From positions 8,980 through 72,979 of the forward strand of contig JANRKA010000071.1 in NCBI GenBank assembly GCA_033875325.1: a DNA stretch of 64,000 nucleotides, given 5' to 3'. Both the position numbers and the translations under genes were made by a program. Under the pieces are notes generated by a model, which had not been told where the DNA came from, did no database searches, and saw only the letters and a program-made list of their open reading frames with translations. The DNA is from Elusimicrobiota bacterium (lineage in GTDB: Bacteria; Elusimicrobiota; Elusimicrobia; UBA1565; UBA9628). Shown in pieces: positions 9,390-64,000 of this stretch (the first letter of the stretch is position 1; every line of letters starts with the position of its first letter).

Positions 9390-10364
9390 TCACGGAGACG
9401 GCGGGTCCACGATGCCGGCCTGGTGGGCGTCCACGAAGACCTTCTCCTTGCCGTCCTCGCCCGTCCCGCCGGTGACGCGCACCGCGGTCTGCTCGAAGTT
9501 CACCGCGGCGGTGCCGCGCCGCGACATCATGATGGTCCAGCGCATGGTGGCGGTCTCCCCGGGCGCCAGCTCGGGCGCGGCGGCCGCGTGTCCGGCGTCC
9601 AGGCGGGGGCCGGCGGAGCCGTCGAGCATCAAGCCCTCCTGGGCGGCCTCGACGAAGAGGCCGCGCAGCGGCGCGGCGCCGTCGTTGCGCAGGGTCAGTT
9701 CCACGGTGACGGCGTCTCCCGCGAAGTAGATGGGGTGCTCGCGGCGCAGGACGGGCGGCACGCCTCCGGTCGCGGCGATGCGGTGCGGGGCGCGCCCGGG
9801 GAAGAGCATGGTGAAGCCGGTCGCGTCCGCGCGGTTGATGCCCCAGGGAGCGAGGTAGTCCACGCGCACGCTCAGCCCGTCGCCGCGCGACCAGAACCCG
9901 GTGAAGCGGTCCTTATAAGGGACCAGGGGGCGGCGCGTCACGGCGGCGAAGGCCTCCATCTCGCCGTAGGCGCCGATGACGCCGGAGCCGCCCGCGATGA
10001 GGATGCGGTCCACGGGTCGTCCTGACGGCGCGGGCTCGAGCGGCGGGAGCGCCTCCTCGGGCGGCGGCACGGCGACCGCGTCGCGGGCCGCCGGCGCGGG
10101 CGAGCGGTGCGCGGCCAAGGCTTCGTCGAGTCGCTGCGCGAGCCACGCGGCGACCGCGGCGGCGTCGCGCGACCAGGTCGAAGCCTTCCGCGGGGCGGTG
10201 GGCTTGGGCGCGGCGGCGGGAGCCGGGGCGAAGCGTCCCGGGGGCGGCGTGAGGGCCGCGCGCGCGGCGGGGCCCATCATCCCGGCGATCTCGGCGGCTC
10301 CGGTGGCCTGCGCGCTCAGCGCGAGGAGGCAGGCGACGGCGACGACGCGGCGACTGTGTCTCAT
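9390..10364 (-). CDS. secreted hypothetical protein
   Basis: The likely start is MRHSRRVVAVACLLALSAQA, a signal peptide. The ORF is long and the rest reads as beta-rich sequence. Confidence 0.45.
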   Translation of the reverse strand: MRHSRRVVAVACLLALSAQATGAAEIAGMMGPAARAALTPPPGRFAPAPAAAPKPTAPRKASTWSRDAAAVAAWLAQRLDEALAAHRSPAPAARDAVAVPPPEEALPPLEPAPSGRPVDRILIAGGSGVIGAYGEMEAFAAVTRRPLVPYKDRFTGFWSRGDGLSVRVDYLAPWGINRADATGFTMLFPGRAPHRIAATGGVPPVLRREHPIYFAGDAVTVELTLRNDGAAPLRGLFVEAAQEGLMLDGSAGPRLDAGHAAAAPELAPGETATMRWTIMMSRRGTAAVNFEQTAVRVTGGTGEDGKEKVFVDAHQAGIVDPPSP

Positions 10365-26027: not shown

Positions 26028-26948
26028 ATGGCCGCGCTCGACACGCTGTTCATCCTCAACCCCGCGGCCGGGCATGGGCGGGCGGGGGGGCGTTGGCGCG
26101 ACGCCTACGAACGCGTGAAGGGCCGCGCGGGGGCGCACCGCGTCGTGGAGACGGAGCGTCCCGGGCACGGCCGCGAGCTGGCCCGGGCCGCGTTCGAGGA
26201 CGGCGCGCGCCTCGTGGTCGCGGTCGGGGGCGACGGGACCGTCGGCGAGGTCGTGGACGGGCTGCTCGCCGCCTCGGCCGGCGCGCGCGCCAACGCGGCC
26301 ATGGCCACTTTCCCGGCCGGCTCCGGCTGCGACTTCGCGGGTCACGCGCGCATCCCGCGCGACCCGGCGGCCTGGGCCGACGCCTTCGCCTCGGGCACGG
26401 TCAAGCGCCTGGACGCCGGACGCGCGACCTTCCGAGTCGGCGGCGTCGAGCGCGTGCGCCACTTCCTCAACATGGCCGCCGCCGGCCTGCCCGGCGACGT
26501 CGCCTTGGCCGTGGAGAAACGCGGCAAACCGCTGGGCGGGACCTTGACCTACCTGTTGGAGGGCGCGCTCGCCGCGACGCTCTCGCGCGCCCGCCGCATG
26601 CGTCTGACGCTCGACGGCAAACCCGAGGAAGGCGACTTCCACCTCTTCACCGCGGCCAACACCAGCACCTTCGGCGGGGGCATGAAGGTCGCTCCCGACG
26701 CCGACACGGCCGACGGCCTGCTCGACATCGTGACCATCGGCGCCATGTCCAACGCGTCCCTGCTCGCGCTGCTGCCGAAGGCGCATTCCGGAGGCCACGT
26801 CGGCAAGCCGGGCGTCTCCATCCGCCGCGCGCGGCGCGTGGAGCTGTCCGGACCCGAGCGTTTGCCGCTCAACATCGACGGCGACGCCGAGGGCGAGGCG
26901 CCCGCCGTGTTCGAGGCCCTGCCCGGCGTCCTGCCCTTCCGTTATTAA
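26028..26948 (+). CDS. diacylglycerol/lipid kinase catalytic-domain protein (YegS/BmrU family)
   Basis: It has 'LFILNPAAGHGRAG' and 'VVAVGGDGTVGEVV'. An alternative TTG start lies at 26013. Confidence 0.75.
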   Translation: MAALDTLFILNPAAGHGRAGGRWRDAYERVKGRAGAHRVVETERPGHGRELARAAFEDGARLVVAVGGDGTVGEVVDGLLAASAGARANAAMATFPAGSGCDFAGHARIPRDPAAWADAFASGTVKRLDAGRATFRVGGVERVRHFLNMAAAGLPGDVALAVEKRGKPLGGTLTYLLEGALAATLSRARRMRLTLDGKPEEGDFHLFTAANTSTFGGGMKVAPDADTADGLLDIVTIGAMSNASLLALLPKAHSGGHVGKPGVSIRRARRVELSGPERLPLNIDGDAEGEAPAVFEALPGVLPFRY

Positions 26949-27036
26949 GCTGGGGGACAGGCACCCAGCTTAACAGACCTGTCCCACAACTTAAGGGGAC
27001 TGTCCCCGTAAGCTGGGTGCCTGTCCCCTAGCTTAC
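26947..27036. repeat. cluster of three palindromic elements sharing core GGGGACAG/CTGTCCCC between convergent genes (probable bidirectional terminator / REP-like)
   Basis: AAGCTGGG-GGACAGGCA-CCCAGCTT is at 26947-26971. The palindrome GGGGACTGTCCCC is at 26995-27007. The inverted copy GTAAGCTGGGTGCCTGTCCCCTAGCTTAC is at 27008-27036. They overlap the stop codons of dagK-like (+) and cupin (-). Confidence 0.55.
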
Positions 27037-27482: not shown

Positions 27483-27487
27483 CAAAA

Positions 27488-27532
27488 TGGTGGCGGGGGA
27501 CAGGATCGAACTGTCGACACCCGGTTTTTCAG
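27488..27532 (-). pseudogene. orphan 45-nt copy of tRNA-Phe 3' exon (anticodon loop to CCA), diverged direct repeat
   Basis: The RNA-sense sequence is CTGAAAAACCGGGTGTCGACAGTTCGATCCTGTCCCCCGCCACCA. This aligns to the 27703-27747 exon with 5 substitutions. No matching 5' half lies upstream. Confidence 0.6.
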
Positions 27533-27702
27533 ACTGGACTACATTTGGGAATGGTCGGACGAAAAAACATCTGTTTTTCCGTCGCTTTTCGATACTCAAA
27601 ACGGTCAAAAACGACCACTTCCAACGAATTTTTGTCGAGATGTGTGTCGAGATGAGCCCTTTTTCAGGGCCCATCCCGACATCACGCGACGGCTTTCAAA
27701 GA

Positions 27703-28021
27703 TGGTGGCGAGGGCCAGGATTGAACTGGCGACACCCGGTTTTTCAGCGTTTTGTTACCGCTCCACGCGGAGCAGGGCCGACCTTCCGACCTCTTCACGT
27801 TACCGTGAAGACCAGACTATATCTTCCGCTTCGAGAGCGGTTAGGCGTGTAGTCGTTACGGGTTCCCCGAGGTTTACGCTCCTCGAGGCCTTCCCTCGGT
27901 ATTGTCCTCCCAGCTCTCGCCGGGGTGGGAGTTCCACCGATATAGCCTAATGCAATTCCCGCCGTCGCCGGCGGGAGGGGCCGATTTGTTGACCGGTGCT
28001 CTACCACTGAGCTACCTCGCC
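27703..28021 (-). tRNA. tRNA-Phe(GAA) interrupted by a group I intron (5' exon 27992-28021, 3' exon 27703-27747)
   Basis: Joining the exons gives GGCGAGGTAGCTCAGTGGTAGAGCACCGGT|CTGAAAAACCGGGTGTCGCCAGTTCAATCCTGGCCCTCGCCACCA. This is a canonical cloverleaf. The anticodon loop CUGAAAA gives anticodon GAA. The variable loop GUGUC and the overall layout match E. coli tRNA-Phe. Confidence 0.8.
27748..27991 (-). ncRNA. group I intron (IC3-like) inserted between tRNA positions 31 and 32
   Basis: The 244-nt insert carries the conserved catalytic core 'GACUACACG' (R/P7 5') and 'AAGAUAUAGUC' (S/P7 3'). The 5' exon ends in U and the intron ends in G (omega-G). A candidate IGS GCCGG can pair with exon CCGGU to form a U•G wobble. 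Confidence 0.7.
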
Positions 28022-28103
28022 ACGGACTTACTTGGTAGAACAACGAGATTATGCCACATTCCCGGCTAGGTGGCAATGTAGACGAGATTCTGCGGGCGCG
28101 AGC

Positions 28104-29210
28104 TTAGGCGGCTAACACGCGAAGGAGGCTGCCGTCCTCGGCGACATGCAGCAGCTTGTTCGGTTGGGCGTGGGCCTTGAGCGGGATATCGAGCAGCTTT
28201 TCGAACTCCCACTTGTTCAGCGCTTCCACGACCGCCGCGTCGAGCCCGAACTCGAGACTGAGGGGGTGGTGGGGCTCCCATTCGGGCCGGCGCTCCGGCT
28301 TGCCAGGCGCCTCCAATCGGAGCGGGCCAATCTGTTTGATCAAGTCCGCCGTCTCGCCGTATTCGTCCCGCAGGAACGTCCTTCCTTCGTGCTGGATCTC
28401 GCCCTGAAACTTCGGCATCTTTTCCACGACAGGCCCCGGAATCCATTTCTTGGTTCGGACGATCTCGGAGCTTCTGCGCTCGATGGCGCTGGCGAGAGTC
28501 GCCATGCCCGCAAGGGCTGCCGCGCTTCGGTAATGCCGCGCGAGCTGTAGATAGCGTTCCTCAGTCGACGGCGGCTTCAGGTCCTCGTCCCCCGGGGGAT
28601 CGAAGATGAAGAGCTCGACCGGCGGCCCATCGTTCGGCAGAGAGGAAATCACGCCGTACTTGTAGTTGGCGACATGCGCGGCCTTCTTGGCAGCGAGGTC
28701 TTTGGAGGCGCCGCGCACCTGCGAGCGTCTGCTCCGTCCCCGCGCCTCATAGACGGCGGTGAAGCCTCGTGAAACCACGCGGAAGTCGCATCGCTTGCTC
28801 GTGGTGGTAATTCGGGTGATCTCCGCGAGCTTGACCGAGAGAGCCTTGCACATCGTCAAGGTCGCCAGCCCGACGCCGAGCACCTGGGAGACCGCCCCCG
28901 TCCACTCGTGATCGCCAGACGCTCTCAGATGCAGGGCCTCCGTGCCCGCGTCTCGATACATGGTTCCAGCGAGGTCATCGAAGGCCCGGACTATTCGCCG
29001 GGCGGGCCCGCAGTCGCGGATGAGATAATGAACGGAGGCGTAGTGGATCAGGGCGATGGGGCGAATCGTGATTCCGGTTCGCACAAGATTCCTGAGCACT
29101 CCACTGTGCGGGTAGCTGTTCGTGGCACAGGAGCCATCGCCGTCTCGCACGGGAATAGAACATTCCGCGAATAGGTCCCTGATGAAGCCGGGAATGCCTG
29201 AGTACAGCAT
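28104..29210 (-). CDS. hypothetical 368-aa protein (no recognisable domain), first gene of a 3-gene minus-strand cassette
   Basis: It is a long ORF with good codon usage and lies next to the tRNA. It contains an Rx4H stretch (RASGDH). Confidence 0.4.
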   Translation of the reverse strand: MLYSGIPGFIRDLFAECSIPVRDGDGSCATNSYPHSGVLRNLVRTGITIRPIALIHYASVHYLIRDCGPARRIVRAFDDLAGTMYRDAGTEALHLRASGDHEWTGAVSQVLGVGLATLTMCKALSVKLAEITRITTTSKRCDFRVVSRGFTAVYEARGRSRRSQVRGASKDLAAKKAAHVANYKYGVISSLPNDGPPVELFIFDPPGDEDLKPPSTEERYLQLARHYRSAAALAGMATLASAIERRSSEIVRTKKWIPGPVVEKMPKFQGEIQHEGRTFLRDEYGETADLIKQIGPLRLEAPGKPERRPEWEPHHPLSLEFGLDAAVVEALNKWEFEKLLDIPLKAHAQPNKLLHVAEDGSLLRVLAA

Positions 29211-29648
29211 CTACCGCGCTTCGAGCCGCCAACGTGCCTCGCGTTTGCCGAGGCTCCGCACCGCGATCAGCGCCGCGCGGTTCTTGTCGCGAGGCCTGGA
29301 GCGGCCGCCTTCCCAGGCCGAAACCGCTCCCGCGCTCGCTCCCACCAGCTTTCCAAAAGCCTCTCGTGAAAGACCCAGGCGGGCACGCTGCGAGCGGATC
29401 AAGTGAGGCCCGAGGTGCGCGTTCTTCACCTCTGCTCCCGAGGCGGTGGGGGGCGCAGTCATGCGCGCTCTATAGTCGGTCTGGAGCTTGGCGTTGTCTC
29501 GCCGCAGTTGGTCCGTGGTCCGGGACAGCTCCGCGACCTTGTGCTTGAGGGCGATGACATCCTTCCTGAGCTTGGCGTCTGCTTGGCGCGACACTCGGCG
29601 GGCCAATCGCTGGATTTCTTCTCTAAGAACCGCACCGATGTTGGGCAT
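29211..29648 (-). CDS. XRE-family helix-turn-helix protein with N-terminal coiled coil
   Basis: 'IRSQRARLGLSREAFGKLVGASAGAVSAWEGG' is an HTH_XRE. The N-terminal 60 aa show a heptad-like pattern. The stop abuts the start of the 368-aa gene. Confidence 0.55.
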   Translation of the reverse strand: MPNIGAVLREEIQRLARRVSRQADAKLRKDVIALKHKVAELSRTTDQLRRDNAKLQTDYRARMTAPPTASGAEVKNAHLGPHLIRSQRARLGLSREAFGKLVGASAGAVSAWEGGRSRPRDKNRAALIAVRSLGKREARWRLEAR

Positions 29649-29658
29649 GTCGTCCCTC

Positions 29659-30087
29659 CTAAAACTTCGTCGCGCAAACGAACGCGCCGATTCCGATGAA
29701 AAGAAGCACCGCCGCGCTGCATGCGTAATCCGCCGCGGTGTACCAGCACTCCGCCTTGCCCATTTCCGCGAATCGAGCGTCGAGCTCCTTCATCTGATCG
29801 TCGGCTGGGTCTTTACGCTCATGTTTGCCGAGCCATCGGCTCCAATGACGCAGGGATTTCGCTTGGTGCTGGCTTCCGAGATAATGCGCGAGCTGCTGGA
29901 CCAGGCAGGCACAGATAGGGACGAAGAACAGGCGCGCCATTCCTCGCAGCGAGGCTTCTTTCCCCAGCTCGTATAGCGCTCCGGTCGAAAGGCCGATGAC
30001 CGTTGTCATCAGCGCTAAGCCGACGCCGCGGTAGCGTTCGTGGGCCTGCTCGGCTTTCTCCGATTCGGCTTCGGTATCTAGTGCCAT
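29659..30087 (-). CDS. small membrane protein (2 predicted TM helices)
   Basis: It is 142 aa. Hydrophobic segments are 'GVGLALMTTVIGLSTGAL' and 'AAVLLFIGIGAFVCA'. Confidence 0.4.
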   Translation of the reverse strand: MALDTEAESEKAEQAHERYRGVGLALMTTVIGLSTGALYELGKEASLRGMARLFFVPICACLVQQLAHYLGSQHQAKSLRHWSRWLGKHERKDPADDQMKELDARFAEMGKAECWYTAADYACSAAVLLFIGIGAFVCATKF

Positions 30088-30091
30088 CGTT

Positions 30092-31627
30092 TCAAGGTTT
30101 CAGCTTCAGTCGTTTGATCCGCGGCACGAAGATCTCATGGAAGCGTTCGAGGGAATGGAGCATCCATTCGTACGCCTGGGGCCATGCCGCCCGGTCGAGG
30201 AGCTTGCCGTCGAAATGGGTCTGGATCTGGCTTTCCTTCTTCGTGGGGAGCGGCTCCCAGCGTAGAGGAGCGCCGAATTCCTTATCGATCGCCGCCTTCT
30301 CCGTCTTCAGCAGCTCGTAGTTCTTCTTGCGATCCGGACCCTTGATCGCGATGTAGACGGCGAGCCGGTTCTGGCTCGCGATGGCGACGTAAAGGAAACC
30401 CCCGGTGTTGATCGTCATCCAGCCCTTCGGGCGCGGGACTGGATAGCGTAGTTTGCTGCCGGCTTTCTCCGCGTAGTTGCGGAAGCCGCTCCAGAAGTCG
30501 AACTGCAGTTTCGTGACGCCGCCCGCCCCGTTGGTCGACGCGCGCCCCGGCAGCGCCTCGTCCAGGTAAGGCTTCAGGACCTCGATGAAGCGGTGGATGC
30601 GTCCGGCGATGAATTCCGGGTCATCGGGCACCGTCTCGTAGAGACAACTCGAAGGATGATCCTCCCAGGAAACTTTGTCGCCGAGGGCCTCCTCGATTTC
30701 GCGCCGGTGGGCGGTGAGCAGGGTCTTGAGCGCGCGGTTATGGCGAGGCTGGCAGTTGGTGTGTACCTGGAACGTGCGATCCGCGGGGTCGTAGTAGAGA
30801 GAGATACCCTCATAGATGGTCTTCCAGCGCGAGAAGACGCCTTGAACATACTGCTTGCTCCTGTGGAGCCTCCAGCCCTCGCCGGCGGGGCAGTCATCCT
30901 TTAACATTCCCTCCACGCCGTCGAGCAGCTTGGAAAAGCGTTCCTTCACGTCCGCAGGCACGTTTGCTGCTTCCCCATCCTCATTCTCGTCGTCTTCCTT
31001 TGCGGACTGTGCCGGCCGCGCGGAGTCGTGCAGGGGGTTTATCAGCAGGTATTCATCGTTCGTCGTCGTGACGAAATTTGAGAACTGCAGGACGCGGCAG
31101 TCGAATCGAAGGCCGCTGATCTGGGTGATGAAGTCGGAGTCGAAGTCTTCCGCCACTACGACGCCGACCTGTTCGTCGTTGAAGTCTGGTACGTGAGTGA
31201 CCTTGAAGTGCTCCTTGAAGCGTCGCACGAGGTTGTTGACTTCGCGGTCGAAGGGGATGAGGTTCGCCTTGCGCGCGAGCTCGCCGTCGGACCACCCGCT
31301 GATCGCGGTGAGGTAGTCGTTGAGCTGGGCGACGGTATCGCGGGGAGCCCTCCCGCGCTTCAATTCGATCACGACGACGCGGCCGTGCTGGTCGAGAGCG
31401 AGCAGATCGATGAACGCGCCGCGATCGGTCTTCACCTGCCGGCCGATGAGGAGGATGTCGTCGCCGAGCAGATGCGGATTGGCGCCGAGCCAGTCCTCGA
31501 GGTTCTTCTCCAGGCGCTCGAAGCCGAACTGCCTCTTCTGGATCGGCTGGAACACCCCGGCGTCCGACTTGAACAGCTTCATCGTCATGTTACAAGGATG
31601 ATACCAAGCACGGTCCAGCGAGTCCAC
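30092..31627 (-). CDS. NucS/DUF91-like PD-(D/E)xK nuclease fused to C-terminal DUF4268-like domain
   Basis: It has 'GAFIDLLALDQHGRVVVIELKRG', the D…ExK nuclease core. The C-terminal region is 'GWMTINTGGFLYVAIA…YIAIKGP'. An alternative start at Met14 (31588) overlaps, as ATGA, a small upstream ORF. Confidence 0.6.
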   Translation of the reverse strand: MDSLDRAWYHPCNMTMKLFKSDAGVFQPIQKRQFGFERLEKNLEDWLGANPHLLGDDILLIGRQVKTDRGAFIDLLALDQHGRVVVIELKRGRAPRDTVAQLNDYLTAISGWSDGELARKANLIPFDREVNNLVRRFKEHFKVTHVPDFNDEQVGVVVAEDFDSDFITQISGLRFDCRVLQFSNFVTTTNDEYLLINPLHDSARPAQSAKEDDENEDGEAANVPADVKERFSKLLDGVEGMLKDDCPAGEGWRLHRSKQYVQGVFSRWKTIYEGISLYYDPADRTFQVHTNCQPRHNRALKTLLTAHRREIEEALGDKVSWEDHPSSCLYETVPDDPEFIAGRIHRFIEVLKPYLDEALPGRASTNGAGGVTKLQFDFWSGFRNYAEKAGSKLRYPVPRPKGWMTINTGGFLYVAIASQNRLAVYIAIKGPDRKKNYELLKTEKAAIDKEFGAPLRWEPLPTKKESQIQTHFDGKLLDRAAWPQAYEWMLHSLERFHEIFVPRIKRLKLKP

Positions 31628-31712
31628 GGCGGGTCGGTCCGCGGGCGCTCCACCCCGTTGGGGTCCTGAACGAAGGAAGTGCTTTTCCCGGCTGCCGACA
31701 TAACGCAGGTCT

Positions 31713-31989
31713 TATTTTTCATAACCACCTCCCGCTCAGCCGGCCAGGAGTGAGCGGCGCCGCGCCTGCGGCATAAACGGTCACCCCCGCCGACGATCGG
31801 GAAATTCGGCCCAACCCCCGCCGTGCCCCAAATTGCCCGACAGCGCGCTCCGCGCGGCCGCCAGCTCGGCTGCGCCGGGGGCGGTCGCCAGGTGGGGACC
31901 CACCATTTATTCCTCATCGCGGCGCCGCTCCTCGGCCGCCTTCGACCCTTCGGGCGTTCGGAGGTGGTTATGAAAAATAAGACCTGCGT
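31713..31989. repeat. perfect 30-bp inverted repeat pair bracketing a 217-bp leader; the right copy contains the RBS+ATG+6 codons of the JAB gene
   Basis: 31713-31742 is ACGCAGGTCTTATTTTTCATAACCACCTCC. It is the exact reverse complement of 31960-31989, GGAGGTGGTTATGAAAAATAAGACCTGCGT. Confidence 0.7.
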
Positions 31990-32518
31990 GAAAGTCGTAA
32001 CGGACGGCAAGACGGACACGGCGCCGGTAGCTGGTGAGTCTCTGGCCACGGAAGCCATGAAGCGTTCGAGGGTGCCTCTCTACCGGGTGATGCTCGACCG
32101 GACGGGCTCTATCCTCAAGGAGGGGACGGCATTCGTCACGGAGCCGCGAGAGGCTGCGCGGTTGTTCCGTGAGTTCATCGGGGACGCACCGCAGGAGCAC
32201 TTCTGTCTGATGGTGCTCGACGCGAGAAAGCGGGTCATCGGAATCAACGAGGTCAGCGTAGGGACGCTCTCCGCGTCCTTGGTGCATCCGCGAGAGGTCT
32301 TCCGGGCGGCCATCCTGCTCAACGGCGCGGCCGTCGTGGTGGCGCACAACCACCCGAGCGGCGACCCGGCTCCTTCCCCGGAGGACCGCGAGGCGACCCG
32401 ACGGCTCCAACGCGCGGGAGAAATCCTCGGCATTCCCGTCGCGGACCACATCGTGCTGGGAGAGGGCGAAGGAGCCTCCCTACGCTTCTTCAGCTTCCGC
32501 GACGGCGGGTTGCTCTAG
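31970..32518 (+). CDS. RadC-like JAB/MPN domain protein (DUF2466)
   Basis: It has 'VVAHNHPSGDPAPSPEDREATRRL', the HNHPSG JAMM-like motif. Confidence 0.8.
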   Translation: MKNKTCVKVVTDGKTDTAPVAGESLATEAMKRSRVPLYRVMLDRTGSILKEGTAFVTEPREAARLFREFIGDAPQEHFCLMVLDARKRVIGINEVSVGTLSASLVHPREVFRAAILLNGAAVVVAHNHPSGDPAPSPEDREATRRLQRAGEILGIPVADHIVLGEGEGASLRFFSFRDGGLL

Positions 32519-32586
32519 GGCGTCCACGCCGCCGCCCTGGGGCGACCCGGGGCGGTCCGTGGGCGCCTTAGCCCAAGGAGAACACC

Positions 32587-33051
32587 ATGAACATGAATGA
32601 ATGCGTAAGCCGTGAGCGCGAGGCGTTGAAGGAGCGGCGGCGTCTGCTGGTCGAGAAGCTCAAGCCGTTCGGAGTCGTCAGGGTCGAGGTCGATTACGAC
32701 GGCTGCGGGGACTCGGGCGATATCCAGGAAGTCCGCGCCTTGAAGAAGGGCCCCCGCTCCGACAAGGAGCAGCCCGCGAACCTGGACGGGCAGAGCGTCA
32801 CAGTCGAGCGCTTCGAGAGCGTCTACAACACCGAGCGCAAGGACTGGGACCGCAAGCCCTACCAGGCCACGGTGACGCTCAAGGAGGCGTTGAGCGACTT
32901 CGCGCTGGACTTCCTCTCGTTCCTCGGCATCGACTGGTACAACAACGAGGGCGGCTACGGGACCATCGTCCTGGATGTGGCGGGGGACGAGGCCAAGGCC
33001 GAGCACAACTATCGCATCGAGTCCAGCGAGTATTCGGAGCACGCCCTGTGA
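32587..33051 (+). CDS. hypothetical protein (mobile-element-associated)
   Basis: It is 154 aa and acidic, with 'DYDGCGDSGDI'. It overlaps the next gene as ATGA. Confidence 0.4.
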   Translation: MNMNECVSREREALKERRRLLVEKLKPFGVVRVEVDYDGCGDSGDIQEVRALKKGPRSDKEQPANLDGQSVTVERFESVYNTERKDWDRKPYQATVTLKEALSDFALDFLSFLGIDWYNNEGGYGTIVLDVAGDEAKAEHNYRIESSEYSEHAL

Positions 33052-33422
33052 GCCATACCTACCACCATGCCGTGAGCTCGGCTCGACTGTTCGGCGGCAA
33101 GCCCGAGGACTACCAGGCCGTTCATGACTGGTTCGACGAGAGCAAGGCCCACTTGGCCGAAGCCAGGCACCGGGCCAAGCGCCACCACGCGGAAGGCATC
33201 TTCGAGGCCGAGCGCGTGTTCGGCAAGACCATCATCAACAGCAACGGGACGAAGGTGCCCGTGCGCTACATCGGCGAGCAGCACGTCAAGGAGGATTGCG
33301 GCGGCTTCATCCCGTCCGAGGCCGATTGGTGGCGCTGCATCGTGCGCCAGCCGTGGATGAACCGCGGCTACGAGAGCAAGGACGGCTCCAACGCGCGGGC
33401 GGTCCGCGCGTCGGAGCCGTAA
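33048..33422 (+). CDS. hypothetical protein
   Basis: It is 124 aa and translationally coupled to the upstream gene. A hairpin terminator follows it. Confidence 0.4.
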   Translation: MSHTYHHAVSSARLFGGKPEDYQAVHDWFDESKAHLAEARHRAKRHHAEGIFEAERVFGKTIINSNGTKVPVRYIGEQHVKEDCGGFIPSEADWWRCIVRQPWMNRGYESKDGSNARAVRASEP

Positions 33423-33436
33423 CGCAAAAGCGGTTC

Positions 33437-33465
33437 GGGGCCCGTCGGCGAAAACCGACGGGCCC
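33437..33465 (+). terminator. hairpin terminator GGGGCCCGTCGG-CGAAAA-CCGACGGGCCC
   Basis: It is a perfect 11-bp stem. The 3' U-tract is weak (TCTGCTTTG). Confidence 0.55.
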
Positions 33466-33469
33466 TCTG

Positions 33470-33650
33470 CTTTGCGGTGGATATTGCCGCGCCCGTGGAC
33501 GGCGTGGACGAGCAGGTCGCCCACCCCGCCCACCGCCGCTTGGATATCTCTGCCCTGCGGGGCGGATCGGTCCGCGACGCTCCACCCGCGCGAGAGGCCG
33601 CGGGGTCCCCGAGATCTCCACAATCTCCACCGCTCGGCGGCGGAGATTTT
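33470..33650 (+). repeat. partial copy (C) of island repeat family
   Basis: It shares 'GCGGTGGATA..CGTGGACGGCGTGGACGAGC.GGTCGCCCACCCCGCCCACCGCCGCTTGGAT', the palindrome GGCGGATCGGTCCGCG, and the tail 'CTCCACCGCTCGGCGGCGGAGATTT' with copies at 36961, 63775 and 35925. Confidence 0.6.
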
Positions 33651-33699
33651 TTCTTCTTCTCCTTCCACGGCACTTCCCGCTCCGCCGCCTCCCTTCTTC

Positions 33700-33923
33700 G
33701 GTCTGGTCCATTTCGCACCTTCTCTCGGGCCGCAGGAGTGAAGCCCGCCTGCGCTGCGGCATAAACGGTCACCCCTCTCGGCGACTCCCCGGCCGCTCCA
33801 GAGCCTTGCTCGTTCCGCTGGCCGGGTCCCTGCCGGGGGACCCACCATTTATTCCTCGCTTCGACGGACTTCCTCGCGACCCTCCACCCTCCGGGCGGGC
33901 GGAGGTGCGAAATGGCCCAGACC
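33700..33923. repeat. imperfect inverted repeat pair bracketing a 184-bp leader homologous to 31743-31959; right copy includes start codon of gene 33912
   Basis: 33700-33719 is GGTCTGGTCCATTTCGCACC. The reverse complement of 33904-33923 is GGTCTGGGCCATTTCGCACC. Similarity continues into the coding region: the left copy encodes MDQTEEGRRRSGK and the right gene begins MAQTYETRRRSGK. Confidence 0.6.
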
Positions 33924-34298
33924 TACGAGACTCGGCGGCGGAGCGGGAAGCACGAAGGCTCTGACGTGAAAGTCCAGGGACGGAGCCAAGCACCCCGGGA
34001 GAAGCACATGAAAACTGGAAAAGCGTTGGGCTTCAAGAAGGGGGACTTCGTCCACACGGGAGCGTTCCCCGGAATCATCATCAGCGACGTGCAGACGTTC
34101 GCGCCGTGTTGCGAGGTTTGGGGCTTCGAGCACGAGATGGGCTCGGCCTACGCCGAGGACATGACGCTTCTGACCTGGGAGAACTTCCAGGAACTCGCCA
34201 AGCGCTTCGGCTTCGACAGCACCGCCGACTCCAAGACGGCGCAGGAGGCCATCGCCAAGGCGAAGGCGGCGGCTTCGGGGGTTCCCGTAACTGCCTGA
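33912..34298 (+). CDS. hypothetical protein
   Basis: It is 128 aa with no recognised domain. It lies downstream of a conserved leader module. Confidence 0.4.
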   Translation: MAQTYETRRRSGKHEGSDVKVQGRSQAPREKHMKTGKALGFKKGDFVHTGAFPGIIISDVQTFAPCCEVWGFEHEMGSAYAEDMTLLTWENFQELAKRFGFDSTADSKTAQEAIAKAKAAASGVPVTA

Positions 34299-34364
34299 TT
34301 CGACCAGGGGTCCCGAGGGCGACCTCGGGGCCCCGAGCCGGGCCAGGCCCGGGAACTGAAACAC

Positions 34365-35894
34365 ATGGAGAAAACAATGAACGAGACGAAAGAGAAGGAA
34401 GCCATGAAGGTGCCGGAGCGCGCGCTGTTGAGCATCCCGCTCGACAAGGTCGAAATCGTGGAGAACGTCCGCAGGAACTTCGACGCGGCTGAAATGAAGG
34501 AACTCGCGGCGAACATTAAGAAGGTCGGCATCCTGCAGAACATCATCGTCATCCGCAACGGCAAGGGAGCCTACACGCTCTCGGCAGGCGAGCGCCGGGT
34601 GCGGGCCGCGCGGATGGCGGGGCTCGTCGAGATTCCCGCGTCCGTGTACGAGGAAGGCGTGGACCCGAAGATGCTCCAGGTGTTCGAGAACCTCCACCGC
34701 AAGGACGTGGGGCCCGTCGAGGAGGCGCGGGGCTTCAAGCACCTTCTCGACGAGGGCAAGCACACCATCGAGGGCCTGGCGCAGGCCGTGGACAAGTCGG
34801 TGAAGTACGTGACGCGCTCGATTCGGCTCCTCGAACTGCCGAAGGCGGCGGTCAAGGCCGTCGAGGCGGGAACGCTCTCGCCCGAGCACGGCCATCAAAT
34901 CCTCCGCGCCCCGGAGGACAAGCGCGAGACGTTCGTGACGTTCGCGCTGACGCCCAAGTGGGGCGGCGGGAGCGACGTGCTTCCCACCATCCACGACCTC
35001 AAGAACGAAATCGAGCGGCGTTTGGAGAAGGACCTCTCGAAGGCCTGCTTCCCGAAGGACAAGGAGTACGCGGGGGCCATGGCCTGCTCGCTCTGCCCGT
35101 TCAACACGGGCAACCAGGACGTGCTGTTCGAAGGGGCCAAGGACGGCAAGTGCACCGACGGCGGGTGCTTCGCCAAGAAAACGTCCACGTTCCTGCGGGA
35201 GTTCCGCGAGGATGCGGGCAAGAAGCTCGGCGGGGTCAAGTTCGCGGGCTACGCGGGCCAGGACCACGGCATGCCGCGCGAGGTCGGCGAGGGCGTCGTG
35301 CTGAGCGCCTCGGAGGCCAAGAGCGAGGCGGTCAAGGCGCTCCTCAAGAAGGACCCCAAGAAGTTCGGCTTCGCCGTGCTCAAGCCGTCGCGGTTCGGGA
35401 GCAAGTCGCCGAGCGCGGTCCTCGTCTGCAACGACAAGGACTTCGTGACGGCGAAGCTCCGCAAGTCCGAGGAGAAGGCCGAGCGCGGTATGAGCGAGGA
35501 GGAGCGGGCCAAGGCTCACTTCGTCGCGACTCATGAGAGCAAGGCGCTGTTCCTCGCGGCGGCGAAGTCGCTCAAGGCAGTCAAGAAGTCGCACTTGGTG
35601 GACGTGGTCATGGCCTTGAACGGCGAGGAGTTGGCGTTCGAGGCCATCGGCGTCGAGGCCGACGAGGACGCGGCGCGGGCGCTCAAGAAGTTGTCCGAGA
35701 AGGACCTCCTGCGCCTGGCGTGGCTGTGCACGGTCCAGCACTACGAGTTAGACGAGCGCCTCTCGGGCCTCATCGAGGTCAAGAAGGTCCGCAAGGAAGC
35801 GCGGACGTTCGCGCACTCTGAGTGGGAGCGCATCCAGAAGGAGGAGGCCGCGAAGGCCGAGGCTCCGAAGGAGGTTGAGCCCGCCGTGAAGTAG
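34365..35894 (+). CDS. ParB/Sulfiredoxin-like nuclease domain protein (plasmid/ICE type)
   Basis: The N-terminal 'ILQNIIVIRNGKGAYTLSAGERRVRAARMAGL' is the ParB GERR-like motif. The long K/E-rich C-terminus has a Cys cluster 'CSLCPFN…CTDGGC'. Confidence 0.7.
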   Translation: MEKTMNETKEKEAMKVPERALLSIPLDKVEIVENVRRNFDAAEMKELAANIKKVGILQNIIVIRNGKGAYTLSAGERRVRAARMAGLVEIPASVYEEGVDPKMLQVFENLHRKDVGPVEEARGFKHLLDEGKHTIEGLAQAVDKSVKYVTRSIRLLELPKAAVKAVEAGTLSPEHGHQILRAPEDKRETFVTFALTPKWGGGSDVLPTIHDLKNEIERRLEKDLSKACFPKDKEYAGAMACSLCPFNTGNQDVLFEGAKDGKCTDGGCFAKKTSTFLREFREDAGKKLGGVKFAGYAGQDHGMPREVGEGVVLSASEAKSEAVKALLKKDPKKFGFAVLKPSRFGSKSPSAVLVCNDKDFVTAKLRKSEEKAERGMSEEERAKAHFVATHESKALFLAAAKSLKAVKKSHLVDVVMALNGEELAFEAIGVEADEDAARALKKLSEKDLLRLAWLCTVQHYELDERLSGLIEVKKVRKEARTFAHSEWERIQKEEAAKAEAPKEVEPAVK

Positions 35895-35906
35895 GCCTGT
35901 TGACTT

Positions 35907-35932
35907 GGCCCATCCGGGAAACCGGGTGGGCC
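35907..35932 (+). terminator. hairpin terminator GGCCCATCCGGG-AAA-CCGGGTGGGCC
   Basis: It is a stable GC hairpin immediately after the ParB-like stop. Confidence 0.5.
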
Positions 35933-36070
35933 TCTGTGAGCGGGTCGTGCCTGGATGAACGGGGAAAACTTCGATGGCCGGAGTTCGCCCCCTGGCGGGG
36001 CGCGGACCGGTCCGCGAGCGCTCCTCCCTGCCGGATCGGCCGCAGGGACCGCGAACTCCGGTGGAACTAA
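35925..36070 (+). repeat. diverged copy (D) of island repeat family
   Basis: It contains the perfect palindrome CGCGGACCGGTCCGCG at 36001-36016, followed by 'GCTCCTCCCTGCCGG…GGGACCGCGAACTCC'. This is similar to the tail of the copy at 63775. Confidence 0.5.
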
Positions 36071-36479
36071 ACGCGGGGGTCGTTCGTATAGCTTGTGTGG
36101 ATCAGGAGACCCCCGACGCATTCCGGTGGGAGGAATGGGACTGGCGGCCGCTGGCGCGCCTCATCGCCTGGGTCCTCCTCGCCGCCCTTTGGGCGCGCTC
36201 GCGAGACATCGTCTCGCTCGCGCTCATTCAGCGCGTTCTCCGCGAGCTCCTGCTCGGCTGGCTGCTCTCCTTCGGCCTGCTGACTTATGTCCAAGCGCTG
36301 ATCGCCACCGCGGCCTTCCGCCTCGCGCTCGCGCTCGACGACGCCGCTTACGGCCTGTCGGAACGCCTCGTGAGGCTCTTCATGCGCCGCGCGTCGTTCG
36401 CCGCGACTTTCGTCGCGGCGTTCGGCGTCGAGCTCACGTTCGTTCTCGGCGCGCTTTGTCTCGTCGTGGGGGCGCTGCG

Positions 36480-36899
36480 ATGATTACGAGCCTGCGGGTC
36501 GTGCACGCGGGCCGCCGCCCAGGGCCTCTCATCCGTTCGGCCGAGGACGCCTACCGCGTGCTGTGCCCGCTGGCGCGGGGCCTCGACCGCGAGCACTTCT
36601 GGCGGCTCGACCTCGATTCGCGGCGGCGGTTGCTCGGCTGCGAGCTCGTCTCGATGGGAAGTCTCGACGCCTCGATCGTCCATCCGCGCGAAGTGTTCAA
36701 AGGTGCGCTCCTGAACAACGCGCACAGCATCATGGTCGCGCACAATCATCCGTCCCATGACTTGAGGCCTAGCCAGGCGGACCGACGGACCACGAAGCAA
36801 CTCCTGTTCGTCGCGTGCATGCTCCAGGTGGACCTGGTCGACCATCTCATCGTCGGCGACGACAGCTACTTCAGTTTCAAGAAAGCGGGACTTCTCTAG
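36480..36899 (+). CDS. RadC-like JAB/MPN domain protein, second copy
   Basis: It has 'IMVAHNHPSHDLRPSQADRRTTKQL'. The ATG overlaps the stop of an upstream hydrophobic ORF (35974-36483) that may encode a small membrane protein. Confidence 0.7.
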   Translation: MITSLRVVHAGRRPGPLIRSAEDAYRVLCPLARGLDREHFWRLDLDSRRRLLGCELVSMGSLDASIVHPREVFKGALLNNAHSIMVAHNHPSHDLRPSQADRRTTKQLLFVACMLQVDLVDHLIVGDDSYFSFKKAGLL

Positions 36900-36960
36900 A
36901 AAAGAGGAAGCCCAGCGCCGAGAGCGCCGGGCCTCCTGTCGAACGAAGCAGCTCCTGGGG

Positions 36961-37270
36961 GAAAAGCTTCGCTCAAGGCGAGTATAGAGCGCGAAGCGTG
37001 GAGCGCGCAAGACCCAAAAAGATAACCCAGCCCCCCATCCGTAAGAGCCGGGTCATCGTCCTATCGAGGGTTGCCTTACGAGGGGCCCCCGACAGAACGG
37101 AGCATAATCCCGGCGCCCGGATATTTCAAGACCCAAAAGTCCCAGGGCTGCGGTGGATACCGCCGCGTCCGTGGACGGCGTGGACGAGCGGGTCGCCCAC
37201 CCCCGCCCACCGCCGCTTGGATTTCTCCGCGCCTGCGGCGCGCGCGGACCGGTCCGCGTGCGCTCCTCCC
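36961..37270 (+). repeat. full-length copy (A) of ~300-bp island repeat family with internal 110-bp insertion
   Basis: 'GAGTATAGAGCGCGAAGC…GCGGTGGATACCGCCGCGTCCGTGGACGGCGTGGACGAGCGGGTCGCCCACCCCCGCCCACCGCCGCTTGGATTTCTCCGCGCCTGCGGCGCGCGCGGACCGGTCCGCGTGCGCTCCTCCCCGCCG' is ~95% identical to 63775-63950. Confidence 0.75.
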
Positions 37271-37395
37271 CGCCGGCGATCCGAAAACCTGGCCCAACCC
37301 CAGCCTAGCCCTTAGTTTTCGAACGGCTAGCGTGCCGCGAGGCGGCCAGCCCGGCTGCACACTCGAACAAGACTAGTGTCGCTCGTCTCGCGAAT

Positions 37396-37412
37396 ATACC
37401 CACCCCCAGTAT
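37396..37412 (+). promoter_or_regulatory. candidate CsoR/RcnR-type operator ATACCCACCCCCAGTAT
   Basis: It is a G/C-tract flanked by inverted TAC…GTA arms. This resembles RcnR/CsoR operators (TACT-G6-N-AGTA type). It lies 15 bp upstream of the regulator's ATG. Confidence 0.55.
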
Positions 37413-37426
37413 GCTATGCTAGGGAC

Positions 37427-37678
37427 ATGTCTCACGGGACAACCAAGAAGCGCGGACTCCTCAACCGCGTCAATAGAATCCGCGGGCAGGTCGAGGCGAT
37501 CGGCCGCGGCCTCGAAGACGAGCGTGACTGCTCGAGCCTTCTGCAGACCATCGCTGCGTGTCGAGGCGCCATCGATGGCCTCATGGCGGAGGTGATCGAG
37601 GATCACATCAAATCCCATCTCACCGAGCCCCGCGCGACCCGAACGCTGCTCGCCGTCGTCCGTTCATATTTGAAGTAA
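37427..37678 (+). CDS. CsoR/RcnR/FrmR-family metal-sensing transcriptional repressor
   Basis: 'LNRVNRIRGQVEAIGRGLEDERDCSSLLQTIAACRGAIDGLMAEVIEDHIKSH' gives the C-H-C ligand pattern of DUF156. Confidence 0.75.
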   Translation: MSHGTTKKRGLLNRVNRIRGQVEAIGRGLEDERDCSSLLQTIAACRGAIDGLMAEVIEDHIKSHLTEPRATRTLLAVVRSYLK

Positions 37679-37696
37679 AGACAAGAAGAGGACATT

Positions 37697-37963
37697 ATGG
37701 ACCCGAAGATCGTGATGACCGCATTCTCGATGCTGTTCCTCGCCGAGATGGGGGATAAGACCCAGCTCGCCGTGCTCACTTTGAGCGCATCGAGCGGCAG
37801 GCCCGGGTCGGTGTTCATCGGCGCGGCGGCGGCCTTGATCGCGGTCACGGCGCTCGGGGCCTTTATAGGCGCCGCTACTGGACGGTTCGTTTCGCCCGTG
37901 CTGCTCAACCGGGTCGCGGCGACGTCCTTTATCGCCATAGGCTTATGGATGTGGGCGCGCTGA
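37697..37963 (+). CDS. UPF0016 (GDT1/TMEM165/MneA) half-size cation transporter subunit
   Basis: It has the signature 'E-x-G-D-K-T-Q' (EMGDKTQL) in TM1 and 3 TM helices. Confidence 0.7.
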   Translation: MDPKIVMTAFSMLFLAEMGDKTQLAVLTLSASSGRPGSVFIGAAAALIAVTALGAFIGAATGRFVSPVLLNRVAATSFIAIGLWMWAR

Positions 37964-37964
37964 T

Positions 37965-38918
37965 ATGCACAACGAATCAATAGAGCGTTGGACCCATGAC
38001 CACGTCTTCGGCCAAGATCGCCCGCGGTCGGGAGAAAGCCGGACGCAACTCGTGATCGTCATCACGGCGGTCATGATGGCGCTTGAGATCGGAGCCGGAA
38101 TCGCCTACGGCTCGATGGCGCTGCTGGCGGACGGGCTCCACATGGCCTCGCACGCTTCCGCGCTTGCCATCTCAGCGTTGGCCTATTACTACACCAGGCG
38201 GCACGCCCATGACGCGCGCTTCAACTTCGGCACAGGCAAGATCAACTCGCTGGCCGCCTTCGCGAGCGCGACGCTGCTCGCGGCATTCTCCGTGATCATG
38301 ACCTGGCAGAGCGCGGCGCGGCTCCTCGCTCCGGTCAAGATCGAGTTCAACCAGGCGATCCTCGTCGCCACCCTGGGATTGGCGGTCAACGGCGTCTGCC
38401 TGCTCATCCTCAAAAACCGCGGGCACTCGCACGACGACGAGCACGAGCATGCTCACGACGATCATGGGCACGCCGAGGATAGCGATCACAACCTCTGGTC
38501 CGCCTATTTGCACGTCCTGGCCGACGCCCTCACTTCGGTCTTGGCGATCGCGGCGCTGCTCGCCGGAAAGCGATTCGGCATGACATGGATGGACCCGGCC
38601 ATGGGCATGCTGGGCGCCGCGCTCGTCATCCGCTGGGCCTGGCAGCTTCTGCGCGCATCAAGCCATGTCCTCCTGGATATGCAGGCCCCGGAGACGATGC
38701 GGCGGGCCATCTGCGAGGCGATCGAGCGGCGCGGGAATGCCCGAGTGACGGACCTCCACGTATGGTCCGTGGGTCCTGGAATCTATGCGGCGGAGATCGG
38801 CGTCGTCGCCTCGGAGCCCGCGAGCGCGGACGAATACCGCAAGCTTCTTCCTGAAGCGCTTGGCGTCGTCCATGTCACGGTCGAGGCGCAGCGCTGCGAG
38901 TCGCGCGCCTCGGCATAG
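37965..38918 (+). CDS. czcD: cation diffusion facilitator (CzcD-type) metal efflux transporter
   Basis: It has the CDF TM core ('HMASHASALAIS', 'YLHVLADALTSV'), a His-rich loop 'HSHDDEHEHAHDDHGHAED' and a C-terminal cytoplasmic domain. Confidence 0.85.
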   Translation: MHNESIERWTHDHVFGQDRPRSGESRTQLVIVITAVMMALEIGAGIAYGSMALLADGLHMASHASALAISALAYYYTRRHAHDARFNFGTGKINSLAAFASATLLAAFSVIMTWQSAARLLAPVKIEFNQAILVATLGLAVNGVCLLILKNRGHSHDDEHEHAHDDHGHAEDSDHNLWSAYLHVLADALTSVLAIAALLAGKRFGMTWMDPAMGMLGAALVIRWAWQLLRASSHVLLDMQAPETMRRAICEAIERRGNARVTDLHVWSVGPGIYAAEIGVVASEPASADEYRKLLPEALGVVHVTVEAQRCESRASA

Positions 38919-38927
38919 GCCGATCTC

Positions 38928-40145
38928 GTGGCGGATTCAATCGAAACCACCCCTTCTCGCGCGATCCCGCGCGGCGTCTGGGTGCTGGGCTTCGTGAGCC
39001 TGTTCATGGATGTTTCGTCCGAGATGGTCCACAGCCTGCTGCCCGTGTTCATGGTCTCCGCGCTCGGAGCCGGCGCCTTTGCCGTCGGCCTAGTGGAGGG
39101 CGTCGCCGAGGCCACGGCTCTCATCGTCAAAGTGTTCTCCGGCACGCTCAGTGATTATCTCGGCCGCCGCAAGGAATTGGCCGCCTTCGGCTACGGCCTA
39201 GGGGCGTTGTCCAAACCCCTGTTCGCCCTGGCCGGGACGGTGAACGGCGTCCTTGCCGCCCGCTTCATCGACCGGATTGGAAAAGGGATGCGCGGGGCTC
39301 CCCGAGACGCGCTCGTCGCCGATCTGACGCCGGAGCCGATCCGCGGCGCGGCCTACGGCCTTCGACAATCCTTGGACACGGTCGGAGCCTTCCTCGGGCC
39401 GGTGCTGGCCATGGCGCTCATGCTGCTTTGGGCCGGGGATTTCCGAAAAGTTTTTTGGTTCGCCGTCATTCCCGGCATTCTCTCCGTGACGCTGCTCTTG
39501 TCCGGGGTCCGGGAGCCGGAGGCATCGAAGAAGCCCGGCGAGCCCCGGAGTCCGGTCCACTGGCGGACGCTGAAGCTCTTTGACAAGGCGTATTGGTGGG
39601 TCGTCGCCGTGGGCGCGGTGTTCACGCTCGCACGCTTCAGCGAGGCTTTCTTGATCCTGCGCGCACGCCAGAACGGCCTTTCCGACGCCTTGGCCCCGAC
39701 CGTGCTCGTCTTGATGAACGCGGTCTACGCCTCCACGGCCTATCCCGCCGGAAAGCTCGCGGACCGGATGGACCGCCGCCTTTTGCTCGCAGCCGGACTA
39801 CTCGTCTTGCTGCTCGCGGATCTAGCGCTGGCCCGGGCCGAGGGGTTGACGCTCGTCGCCGTCGGCATCGCCTTGTGGGGCCTGCATATGGGCATCACGC
39901 AAGGCCTGCTCGCGACGATGGTCGCCGCCGCCGCGCCGTCGCACCTGCGCGGGAGCGCCTTCGGCTTCTTCAATCTCGCCGGCGGCTGCGCGATGCTGGC
40001 GGCGAGCATGCTGGCCGGACTTTTGTGGGAACAGTTCGGCGCTCCCTCGACGTTCTATGCCGGAGCCGCGTTCTCGGCCGCCGCGCTGGTCCTCCTCGCC
40101 GCGAAGCCTGCCGACACCATCCCGACCGAACGCCGTTTGTCGTAA
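38928..40145 (+). CDS. MFS transporter
   Basis: It shows 12-TM hydropathy and a motif A-like 'GTLSDYLGRRK'. Confidence 0.7.
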   Translation: MADSIETTPSRAIPRGVWVLGFVSLFMDVSSEMVHSLLPVFMVSALGAGAFAVGLVEGVAEATALIVKVFSGTLSDYLGRRKELAAFGYGLGALSKPLFALAGTVNGVLAARFIDRIGKGMRGAPRDALVADLTPEPIRGAAYGLRQSLDTVGAFLGPVLAMALMLLWAGDFRKVFWFAVIPGILSVTLLLSGVREPEASKKPGEPRSPVHWRTLKLFDKAYWWVVAVGAVFTLARFSEAFLILRARQNGLSDALAPTVLVLMNAVYASTAYPAGKLADRMDRRLLLAAGLLVLLLADLALARAEGLTLVAVGIALWGLHMGITQGLLATMVAAAAPSHLRGSAFGFFNLAGGCAMLAASMLAGLLWEQFGAPSTFYAGAAFSAAALVLLAAKPADTIPTERRLS

Positions 40146-40213
40146 GATCAAAGACGGGCTCGAGACCAGGGCGCTGTCCAGCAGGGCAGCTATAGCGAAA
40201 AACACGATTTTTC

Positions 40214-40279
40214 TTATTGAGATTGATTTTCAATAAGAATTGTGTTAGGCTCTCCCTTATTGAAATGACATTTCAATAA
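40214..40279 (+). promoter_or_regulatory. two AT-rich palindromic operators (TTATTGAGATTGATTTTCAATAA and perfect TTATTGAAATG-A-CATTTCAATAA) upstream of siderophore locus
   Basis: It is an AT-rich island in GC-rich DNA. The second site is a perfect 11+1+11 palindrome immediately before the RBS AAAGGAGG. A Fur/metalloregulator-box-like architecture is possible. Confidence 0.55.
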
Positions 40280-40292
40280 GAAAGGAGGGCCG

Positions 40293-63774: not shown

Positions 63775-64000
63775 CCGAGTATAGAGCGCGAAGCAGTACC
63801 TGCGTAAGACCCAATGCTTGCGGTGGATACCGACGCGTCCGTGGACGGCGTGGACGAGCGGGTCGCCTACCCCGCCCACCGCCGCTTGGATTTCTCCGCG
63901 CCTGCGGCGCGCGCGGATCGGTCCGCGTGCGCTCCTCCCCGCCGTGCGGCCGGCGGGGACCGAGAACTCCACCGTCTCCACCGCTCGGCGGCGGAGATTT
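63775..64000 (+). repeat. copy (B) of ~300-bp island repeat family, running off window end
   Basis: It is near-identical to 36969-37270 minus the 110-bp insert. It continues into the 'CCACCGCTCGGCGGCGGAGATTT' tail shared with copy C (33630-33650). Confidence 0.75.

Follow-up and report, generated by a model that had tools for sequence, protein, structure and literature searches.

A genomic island that appears to have split a resident tRNA-Phe gene at its anticodon loop and brought an intron-bearing spare

Why should the 3' half of a transfer RNA (tRNA) gene for phenylalanine occur twice, 170 nucleotides (nt) apart, just upstream of a cupin gene? The question is raised by a 64,000-nt stretch of DNA from an Elusimicrobiota bacterium (assembly GCA_033875325.1, contig JANRKA010000071.1, positions 8,980 to 72,979 of the forward strand), here called the window. 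An earlier note on this DNA took the two copies of a 45-nt direct repeat of the tRNA-Phe 3' exon for attL and attR of an element that has since been deleted, or for a remnant tandem attachment (att) site. Here, we argue instead that the element is still in place: probably, a site-specific island of ~12.7 kb, now truncated, split the anticodon loop of the resident tRNA-Phe gene and brought along a spare tRNA-Phe gene of its own, interrupted by an intron.

The repeat itself stands where it had been placed (Table 1), with the tRNA sense on the minus strand, and its two copies are the sole matches in the 64-kb window (none in 100 shuffles). Five mismatches had been counted; alignment of the copies gives four (41/45 identical), the fifth falling in the 4-nt trailer, which is reached when the alignment is lengthened to 49 nt. 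The 5' edge of the repeat does match the 3' splice site of the intron, although against the mature tRNA the similarity runs 5 nt past that edge (CCAGT versus CCGGT, 27537-27533). The 170 nt between the copies are indeed AT-richer than their surroundings, with a GC content of 46.5% compared to 73.6% in the cupin gene and 60% in the intron.

What, then, is the downstream copy? Relatives of the locus were located through the window's cupin protein, and related contigs are given here by L numbers. In L001 (GCA_965283875.1, a 3.1 Mb contig), the same succession of a PD-(D/E)XK nuclease, two subtilases, a DAGK-like gene and the cupin gene is found, and directly upstream of the cupin gene lies an intact intronless tRNA-Phe gene, GGCGGGG...CCCCCGCCACCA, whose 3' half, trailer included, agrees with window positions 27534-27488 throughout. 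Another group of relatives (L018-L022), independent of the first, has the same arrangement, again with an intact intronless tRNA-Phe before the cupin gene. The 45 nt of the downstream copy, together with the GT upstream of it, match tRNA-Phe nt 29-75 of L001 (gene at 9921-9995) and of L018 (9987-10061) at 47 of 47 positions. Leftwards of 27537, L001 and the window are syntenic at the DNA level, with 83-88% identity; in the other direction, synteny is not regained before the IucA/IucC operon, near 40.5 kb. Because synteny stops and resumes at these points, the DNA from 27533 to ~40.2 kb can be read as an insertion into the resident tRNA-Phe gene, one of ~12.7 kb that would take in the spacer of 170 nt as well as the entire tRNA-Phe gene with its intron and probable promoter. 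The GC content of this insert is 65%, compared to 71% in both flanks.

The downstream copy is thus the chromosomal side of an attR-type junction, and the earlier note was right to see in it an att-type remnant, left where an element integrated into a tRNA gene. The two copies are not, however, attL and attR of a single recombination event: one belongs to the island's gene as its 3' exon, and the other was displaced from the resident gene, of which it formed the 3' half. Relatives show an empty site rather than the same tandem arrangement with no island, and there is no second complete tRNA gene of which the fragment could form part. Tandem duplication of a tRNA gene followed by decay is ruled out by the empty sites, and use of the downstream fragment as an alternative 3' exon by the nucleotide that precedes it, which is U and not G.

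The four mismatches tell the same two genes apart. In the T stem, C50/G64 of the 3' exon replaces A50/T64 of the downstream copy, so that the pair is preserved; position 57 lies in the T loop, where both residues (A57 and G57) are normal; and T68 of the 3' exon is complementary to A5 of the 5' exon, as C68 of the downstream copy would be to a G5. Because the differences are compensatory in the stems, each copy appears to be the 3' half of a different working tRNA-Phe allele, and the mismatches are best understood as allelic differences between two working lineages, not as random decay. The displaced fragment of L035 carries the same variant allele as the window's 3' exon, and the variant is therefore taken to be the native tRNA-Phe of another lineage.

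With default settings, ARAGORN finds no tRNA in the whole window. When introns are allowed, it reports tRNA-Phe(gaa) i(31,244), with the exons and intron listed in Table 1, and the spliced sequence, itself called tRNA-Phe(gaa), has a canonical 75-nt tRNA-Phe fold. The Rfam model Intron_gpI (RF00028, gathering score 50) gives the intron 47.4 bits (E 4.8e-10) and its four homologues 46.5-50.6 bits, with L003 passing the gathering score. The splice sites (marked by slashes), ...CCGGU/CAAC...AACG/CUGAAAA, leave a U at the end of the 5' exon and a G at the end of the intron. P1 consists of 4 bp (GGU/C with GGCC) with a U.G wobble at the splice site, and is invariant in the five sequences. Nine pairs covary among these five, including pairs of the exon acceptor and T stems, and the conserved GAAGAUAUAGUC core is present. 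There is no open reading frame (ORF) in the intron. Taken together, these features predict a group I intron that would splice itself.

Upstream of the 5' exon, a region of ~43 nt with an extended -10-like TGGCATAAT is conserved in the window, L003, L015, L016, L029 and L035, and is unrelated to the DNA upstream of the native tRNA genes in L001 and L018; it is probably the own promoter of the island-borne gene. Insertion of just the intron, 3' exon and spacer into a native gene is ruled out on two counts, namely that the promoter and the A5-variant 5' exon travel with the island, and that in L029 the whole unit is contiguous at a site that is not the target. A 21-nt probe across the 3' splice site detects only island-borne copies in the metagenome collection. 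Counting these matches together with L003, L029, L035 and the window, seven intron-bearing copies were found, and none is in a resident gene.

The same unit recurs in other genomes. The ~43 nt with TGGCATAAT, the 5' exon, the intron, the 3' exon and a spacer ending ...CCAAATGTAGTCCAGT are found in L003, L016, L017 and L035 as well as in the window (a further copy, in L015, is truncated), and in each of these five the unit is joined at the same nucleotide to the CTGAAAAACCGG... of a host tRNA-Phe remnant, followed by the cupin gene. The junction ...GTAGTCCAGT/CTGAAAAACCGG is nucleotide-identical in these five host backgrounds, with a spacer of 169-170 nt. Occupied sites (the window, L003, L016, L017 and L035) and empty sites (L001/L002 and L018-L022) are interleaved among the genomes: the closest flank to that of the window is the empty L001 (83%), and the closest to that of L003 is the empty L018 (90%). 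To produce this interleaving, an element that moves horizontally must have been inserted site-specifically, or lost precisely, more than once. Some metagenome-assembled genomes with a locus of this Elusimicrobiota type are labelled Armatimonadota (L003) and Bryobacteraceae (L029). These labels probably reflect mis-binned short contigs or, for L029, a free element that was binned arbitrarily.

The spacer can be followed further still. Its length, both its ends and its repeats are kept in six independent copies (the window, L003, L016, L017, L029 and L035), one of them not joined to a tRNA, and it is therefore interpreted as one intact arm of the element's attachment site, from which nothing has been deleted. 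The exceptional copy, L029, was found by way of the NucS/DUF4268 protein of the island. It contains island genes, the intron-bearing tRNA-Phe gene and the same spacer up to ...GTAGTCCAGT CTGAAAA, and then continues into GACGGATGGCTACC... with no tRNA 3' half. Its core, CCAGTCTGAAAAGACGG (CCAGT-CTGAAAA-GACGG), agrees with the anticodon arm of the tRNA, CCGGTCTGAAAAACCGG (CCGGT-CTGAAAA-ACCGG), at 14 of 17 positions, and CCAGT, with A for G, is found in all five integrated copies as well as in L029. A second CGTCATCTCGACAAACATCT motif occurs ~115 nt past the core of L029, so that both arms carry CATCTCGACA pairs. We consider L029 a probable unintegrated attP, and CTGAAAA at 27532-27526 the likely region of strand exchange. 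The flanks of this attP were also considered as a decayed complete tRNA gene, a possibility rejected when similarity past the 17-nt core proved no better than that of shuffled sequences, 35% of which score as high.

How would such an element leave the locus in its present state? We propose that the island enters the resident tRNA-Phe(GAA) gene, which has no intron, at its anticodon loop, and that, with an att core that copies only the anticodon stem-loop, the target would not be rebuilt in the usual way. After integration, one side would consist of the native 5' half and the loop joined to non-tRNA DNA (GACGGATGG...), a dead gene at a predicted attL of GAGCACCGGTCTGAAAAGACGGATGGC; the other would be the island arm, the loop and the native 3' half, as in the window. 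The island-borne gene would then replace the split target as the only working tRNA-Phe gene at the locus. A later deletion that removed the other arm, the integrase and the native 5' half from the window copy would be the simplest account of what is missing there. Excision of a complete island would restore an attB, GAGCACCGGTCTGAAAAACCGGG, next to the cupin gene.

Several observations weigh against this reading. There is no integrase among the island ORFs in searches with Pfam, NCBIfam and tblastn, and neither a native 5' half, a third copy of the repeat block nor a P' arm anywhere in the window. Since the window has no integrase, second att site or native 5' half, the recombinase and the structure of attL had to be deduced from other contigs. 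In addition, L029 ends within the arm, 139 nt past its core; neither an integrase beside the core nor a circle was observed, and what marks it as attP is the repeat motif with its spacing. On the right, the insert could end at 37.4 or 40.2 kb, and the Rfam score of the window intron sits at the gathering threshold.

The recombinase would be of the tyrosine type, judging from the att architecture and from the remnant of an integrase (PF00589, aa 275-424) in L027, which belongs to a related island at a split tRNA-Tyr gene. In that island, the CATCTCGACA motif lies ~120 nt from the anticodon-loop junction, beside a Fic gene and the integrase remnant, a position that corresponds to its place ~115-125 nt beyond the core on the other arm of L029. 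The anticodon arm of the tRNA-Tyr differs from that of the tRNA-Phe by one nucleotide. The islands of L027 and L028 thus resemble that of the window in their RadC-ParB module, their CATCTCGACA arm repeats and a near-identical anticodon arm; they differ from it in being flanked by a 46-nt repeat of a tRNA 5' half, and in having no intron and no separate spare gene. No matches to the L027 integrase remnant, to Fic or to their neighbours were found by tblastn in the window or the other loci.

The repeat in L027 (16865-16912 and 577-667) and L028 is a 46-nt direct repeat of the 5' half of tRNA-Tyr(GTA), and not of the usual 3' half. One end of the L027 island has a truncated 5' half with a promoter, and the other a complete tRNA-Tyr gene beside the integrase pseudogene. 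There, a working tRNA-Tyr gene seems to be rebuilt directly from an island-borne promoter and 5' half.

Perhaps the island is an ordinary one, which rebuilds tRNA-Phe at its far junction, carries the intron-bearing tRNA gene as incidental cargo, and is represented in L029 by a degenerate copy or an insertion at a secondary site. The Islander abstract (PMC4383910) gives as the standard model for islands in tRNA genes that an overlapping tRNA fragment in the island regenerates the target. Mobile elements often carry tRNA genes, and the far junction is visible in no occupied contig here. However, cargo and target tRNA share one identity, and the cargo gene lies 170 nt from the core in every copy. 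Moreover, the DNA past the core in L029 is not tRNA-like beyond 17 nt and has arm repeats at the spacing seen in L027. We regard this explanation as unlikely.

It is far less probable that the locus is a replacement island, spread by homologous recombination through conserved flanks, with the tRNA fragment having arisen once in an ancestor. The flanking genes are conserved enough for recombination, and the window has no integrase. Nevertheless, the divergence of the host flank, all the way to the junction, equals that of each host elsewhere, while the insert is 88-91% identical: 470 nt of the cupin flank are 69-83% identical between genomes and the inserted 520 nt 88-90%, and the island body at 30101-33422 is 90.6% identical to that of L003 over 3.3 kb where the host flank reaches only ~80%. 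The allele of the displaced fragment is that of the host in which it lies, as seen in L035, and L029 has the element end joined to different DNA. An element deleted from between attL and attR (or tandem att sites) to leave 170 bp has very little left to recommend it. A direct repeat of a tRNA 3' half with AT-rich DNA between the copies does typically mark the boundary of an island, but six independent copies, one of them not attached to a tRNA, agree in the length of the spacer and in both its ends, and the upstream copy, intron, 5' exon and promoter are not at the empty sites and travel with the 12.7-kb island.

A DDE transposon (Tn7-like or insertion sequence) was rejected as well, because the island end has no inverted copy in the window and CCAGT versus CCGGT is not an exact duplication. 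An ORF for an rve-family DDE transposase occurs only in L016 (1403-2869), in a variable segment between the island genes and the tRNA promoter; the same segment in L035 (~4090-4200) contains a (CTGC)n microsatellite and small ORFs. Scans of viral contigs for the intron/exon, arm-repeat and junction patterns returned nothing, or four unrelated chance matches, and thus gave no evidence of a phage.

As a probable site-specific island at a split tRNA-Phe gene, the element has much in common with the tRNA islands of tyrosine integrases (Islander/TIGER). The crossover would lie in or next to the 7-nt anticodon loop with a symmetric stem on either side, a displaced tRNA fragment marks one end, the site is empty in some relatives and occupied in others, repeated motifs lie in an AT-rich att arm, and the cargo includes genes of the defence and anti-restriction type. 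An anticodon-loop class of integration sites in tRNA genes was reportedly among the sublocations recognized by Williams in 2002. The window island departs from standard tRNA islands in that its att core copies only ~17 nt of the tRNA, that a complete tRNA gene with promoter is carried beside the core, and that the window copy has neither an integrase nor a second att site.

The intron also has close parallels. At ~244 nt, with no ORF, a location in the anticodon-loop region, U-1 in a wobble pair within a P1 of few base pairs, G as its last nucleotide and the conserved GAAGAUAUAGUC core, it resembles other bacterial tRNA group I introns. Part of a preprint by Williams in 2020 (bioRxiv 10.1101/2020.01.27.920355) describes group I (IC3-type) introns in anticodon loops in 17 settings beyond tRNA-Leu(UAA), fMet, Arg and Ile. 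Unlike those classical examples, the window intron has tRNA-Phe as its host and is inserted where the loop begins on its 5' side, which is position 0 as Williams numbers it, and every copy found is on a mobile island, with none in a resident gene.

Does the intron do anything for the island? We raise, tentatively, the idea that it keeps the island's own tRNA gene from being a target of the island's integrase. The integrase would recognize the contiguous anticodon stem-loop DNA of tRNA-Phe, and would destroy the gene on entry. An intronless spare 215 bp from the core, in direct orientation, would form a perfect pair of attB and attP, leading to deletion of both in cis. An intron between the left core arm (CCGGT) and the overlap (CTGAAAA) would erase the target in the DNA while leaving the mature tRNA normal. 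In favor of this idea, all island copies have the intron and all resident genes seen are without it, and intron-bearing tRNA genes are rare, at ~0.5 per genome in uncultured phyla according to part of the Williams preprint (10.1101/2020.01.27.920355). On the other hand, any intron in the anticodon loop would act in this way, so that the exact coincidence of the boundaries adds little, and the intron may simply have come with the donor gene.

A related proposal exists for archaea. Randau and Soll (2008), as cited in a passage of PMC3488258, proposed that archaeal tRNA genes are shielded against integrating elements by introns and by being split. Our suggestion shares with theirs that an intron in the anticodon region removes the contiguous DNA target and leaves the mature tRNA unchanged. 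The difference is that protein-spliced archaeal introns guard host genes there, while here a self-splicing bacterial intron would guard the element's copy from the element's own recombinase.

The coordinates of the island and its attachment site are collected in Table 1. The distal part of the insert does not lie between the IucA operon and tRNA-Phe in L001, and the far junction is probably between 40146 and 40209, an extent that is uncertain.

Table 1. Features of the split tRNA-Phe locus, the island and its cargo (positions in the window)
Feature	Position	Strand	Remark
Displaced 3' part (anticodon loop to CCA, 45 nt) of resident intronless tRNA-Phe(GAA)	27488..27532	-	identity to empty-site relatives
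Hybrid junction core	27521..27537	-	CCAGT 27537-27533 (element), CTGAAAA 27532-27526 (loop), ACCGG 27525-27521 (chromosome)
Island attachment-site arm (P arm), 170-nt spacer	27533..27702	-	length 169-170 nt, ends and repeats conserved
Covarying hairpins in spacer	27654-27672 and 27558-27583		
Two direct CATCTCGACA repeats in spacer	27633-27642, 27645-27654		
3' exon of island-borne tRNA-Phe(GAA)	27703..27747	-	4 differences from 27488-27532
Group I self-splicing (predicted) intron, 244 nt	27748..27991	-	between tRNA nt 31 and 32, 5' edge of anticodon loop
5' exon of island-borne tRNA-Phe(GAA), A5 variant	27992..28021	-	
Conserved upstream region of island-borne tRNA gene, ~43 nt	28022..28064	-	extended -10-like TGGCATAAT at ~28048-28056
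Island body	28065..37360	.	GC 64.7% vs 71.5% flank; not in empty-site relatives
368-aa protein	28104-29210		adjoins tRNA gene upstream
HTH protein	29211-29648		
142-aa protein			in island body
NucS/DUF4268 protein	30092-31627		matches PADLOC candidate defence family PDC-S11
RadC	to 32518		
ParB-like protein	34365-35894		
Second RadC	35955-36899		
Distal part of insert (probable)	37361..40209	.	GC 65.1%, island-like
Cation-efflux gene	37965-38918		distal part
MFS transporter	38928-40145		distal part

For the 368-aa protein encoded beside the tRNA gene, searches of Pfam, NCBIfam, PHROGs and PADLOC returned nothing, so that it is not a recognizable integrase. Homologues of 367-375 aa are encoded in the same place, directly before the island-borne tRNA gene, in L034 (4095-5198) and L035 (2656-3783).

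The island also contains intergenic repeats of ~200-300 nt that form very long hairpins (31690-32000, 33470-33950, 35980-36060 and 37150-37360, with another at 63820-64000). In one, the arms at 31703-31732 and 31960-31989 are perfect over 30 nt, and the single-stranded DNA has a predicted folding energy of -105 kcal/mol (z -10.4). These repeats precede the RadC and ParB-like genes, are conserved in the related islands of L023-L029, and match no Rfam family. They resemble the single-strand promoter and initiation hairpins in the leading regions of conjugative elements, and the copy at the end of the window suggests a second island there.

Three further observations concern the surrounding genes. 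The start codon of the cupin gene lies 5 nt past the CCA end of tRNA-Phe at occupied and empty sites alike (27483-27487 in the window, 9996-10000 in L001); because of this short distance the cupin gene is presumably co-transcribed with the tRNA, and in occupied genomes its transcription would then have to start at the island's tRNA promoter or in the att arm. Between the convergent cupin and DAGK-like genes is a palindrome (26946-27035) with 40-nt arms that are 83% complementary, which gave spurious Rfam matches to plant and animal microRNAs; it probably serves as a bidirectional terminator or represents a REP-like element. The IucA/IucC siderophore operon is preceded by two palindromes, CTTATTGAAA-N-TTTCAATAAG in form (40210-40283, kept in L001 at 9775-9873), to which an iron-responsive repressor probably binds as its operators.

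The usual view is that an island in a tRNA gene does its target no harm, since an overlapping piece in the island rebuilds it. Here, the element seems to break the gene and to bring a whole replacement, with a predicted ribozyme interrupting it just at the place of the would-be recombination site. Default tRNA finders miss the intron-bearing gene entirely, and the orphan fragment is open to mis-annotation. If the genome has no other tRNA-Phe gene, the host would depend on a self-splicing intron for every phenylalanine codon, and the island, with its integrase end lost, would be fixed. The locus offers a concrete system for asking whether tRNA introns shield genes against site-specific recombinases. 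Should the immunity idea prove true, the intron would make a mobile element immune to itself, and would be a natural case in bacteria on which to test whether tRNA introns guard against integration.
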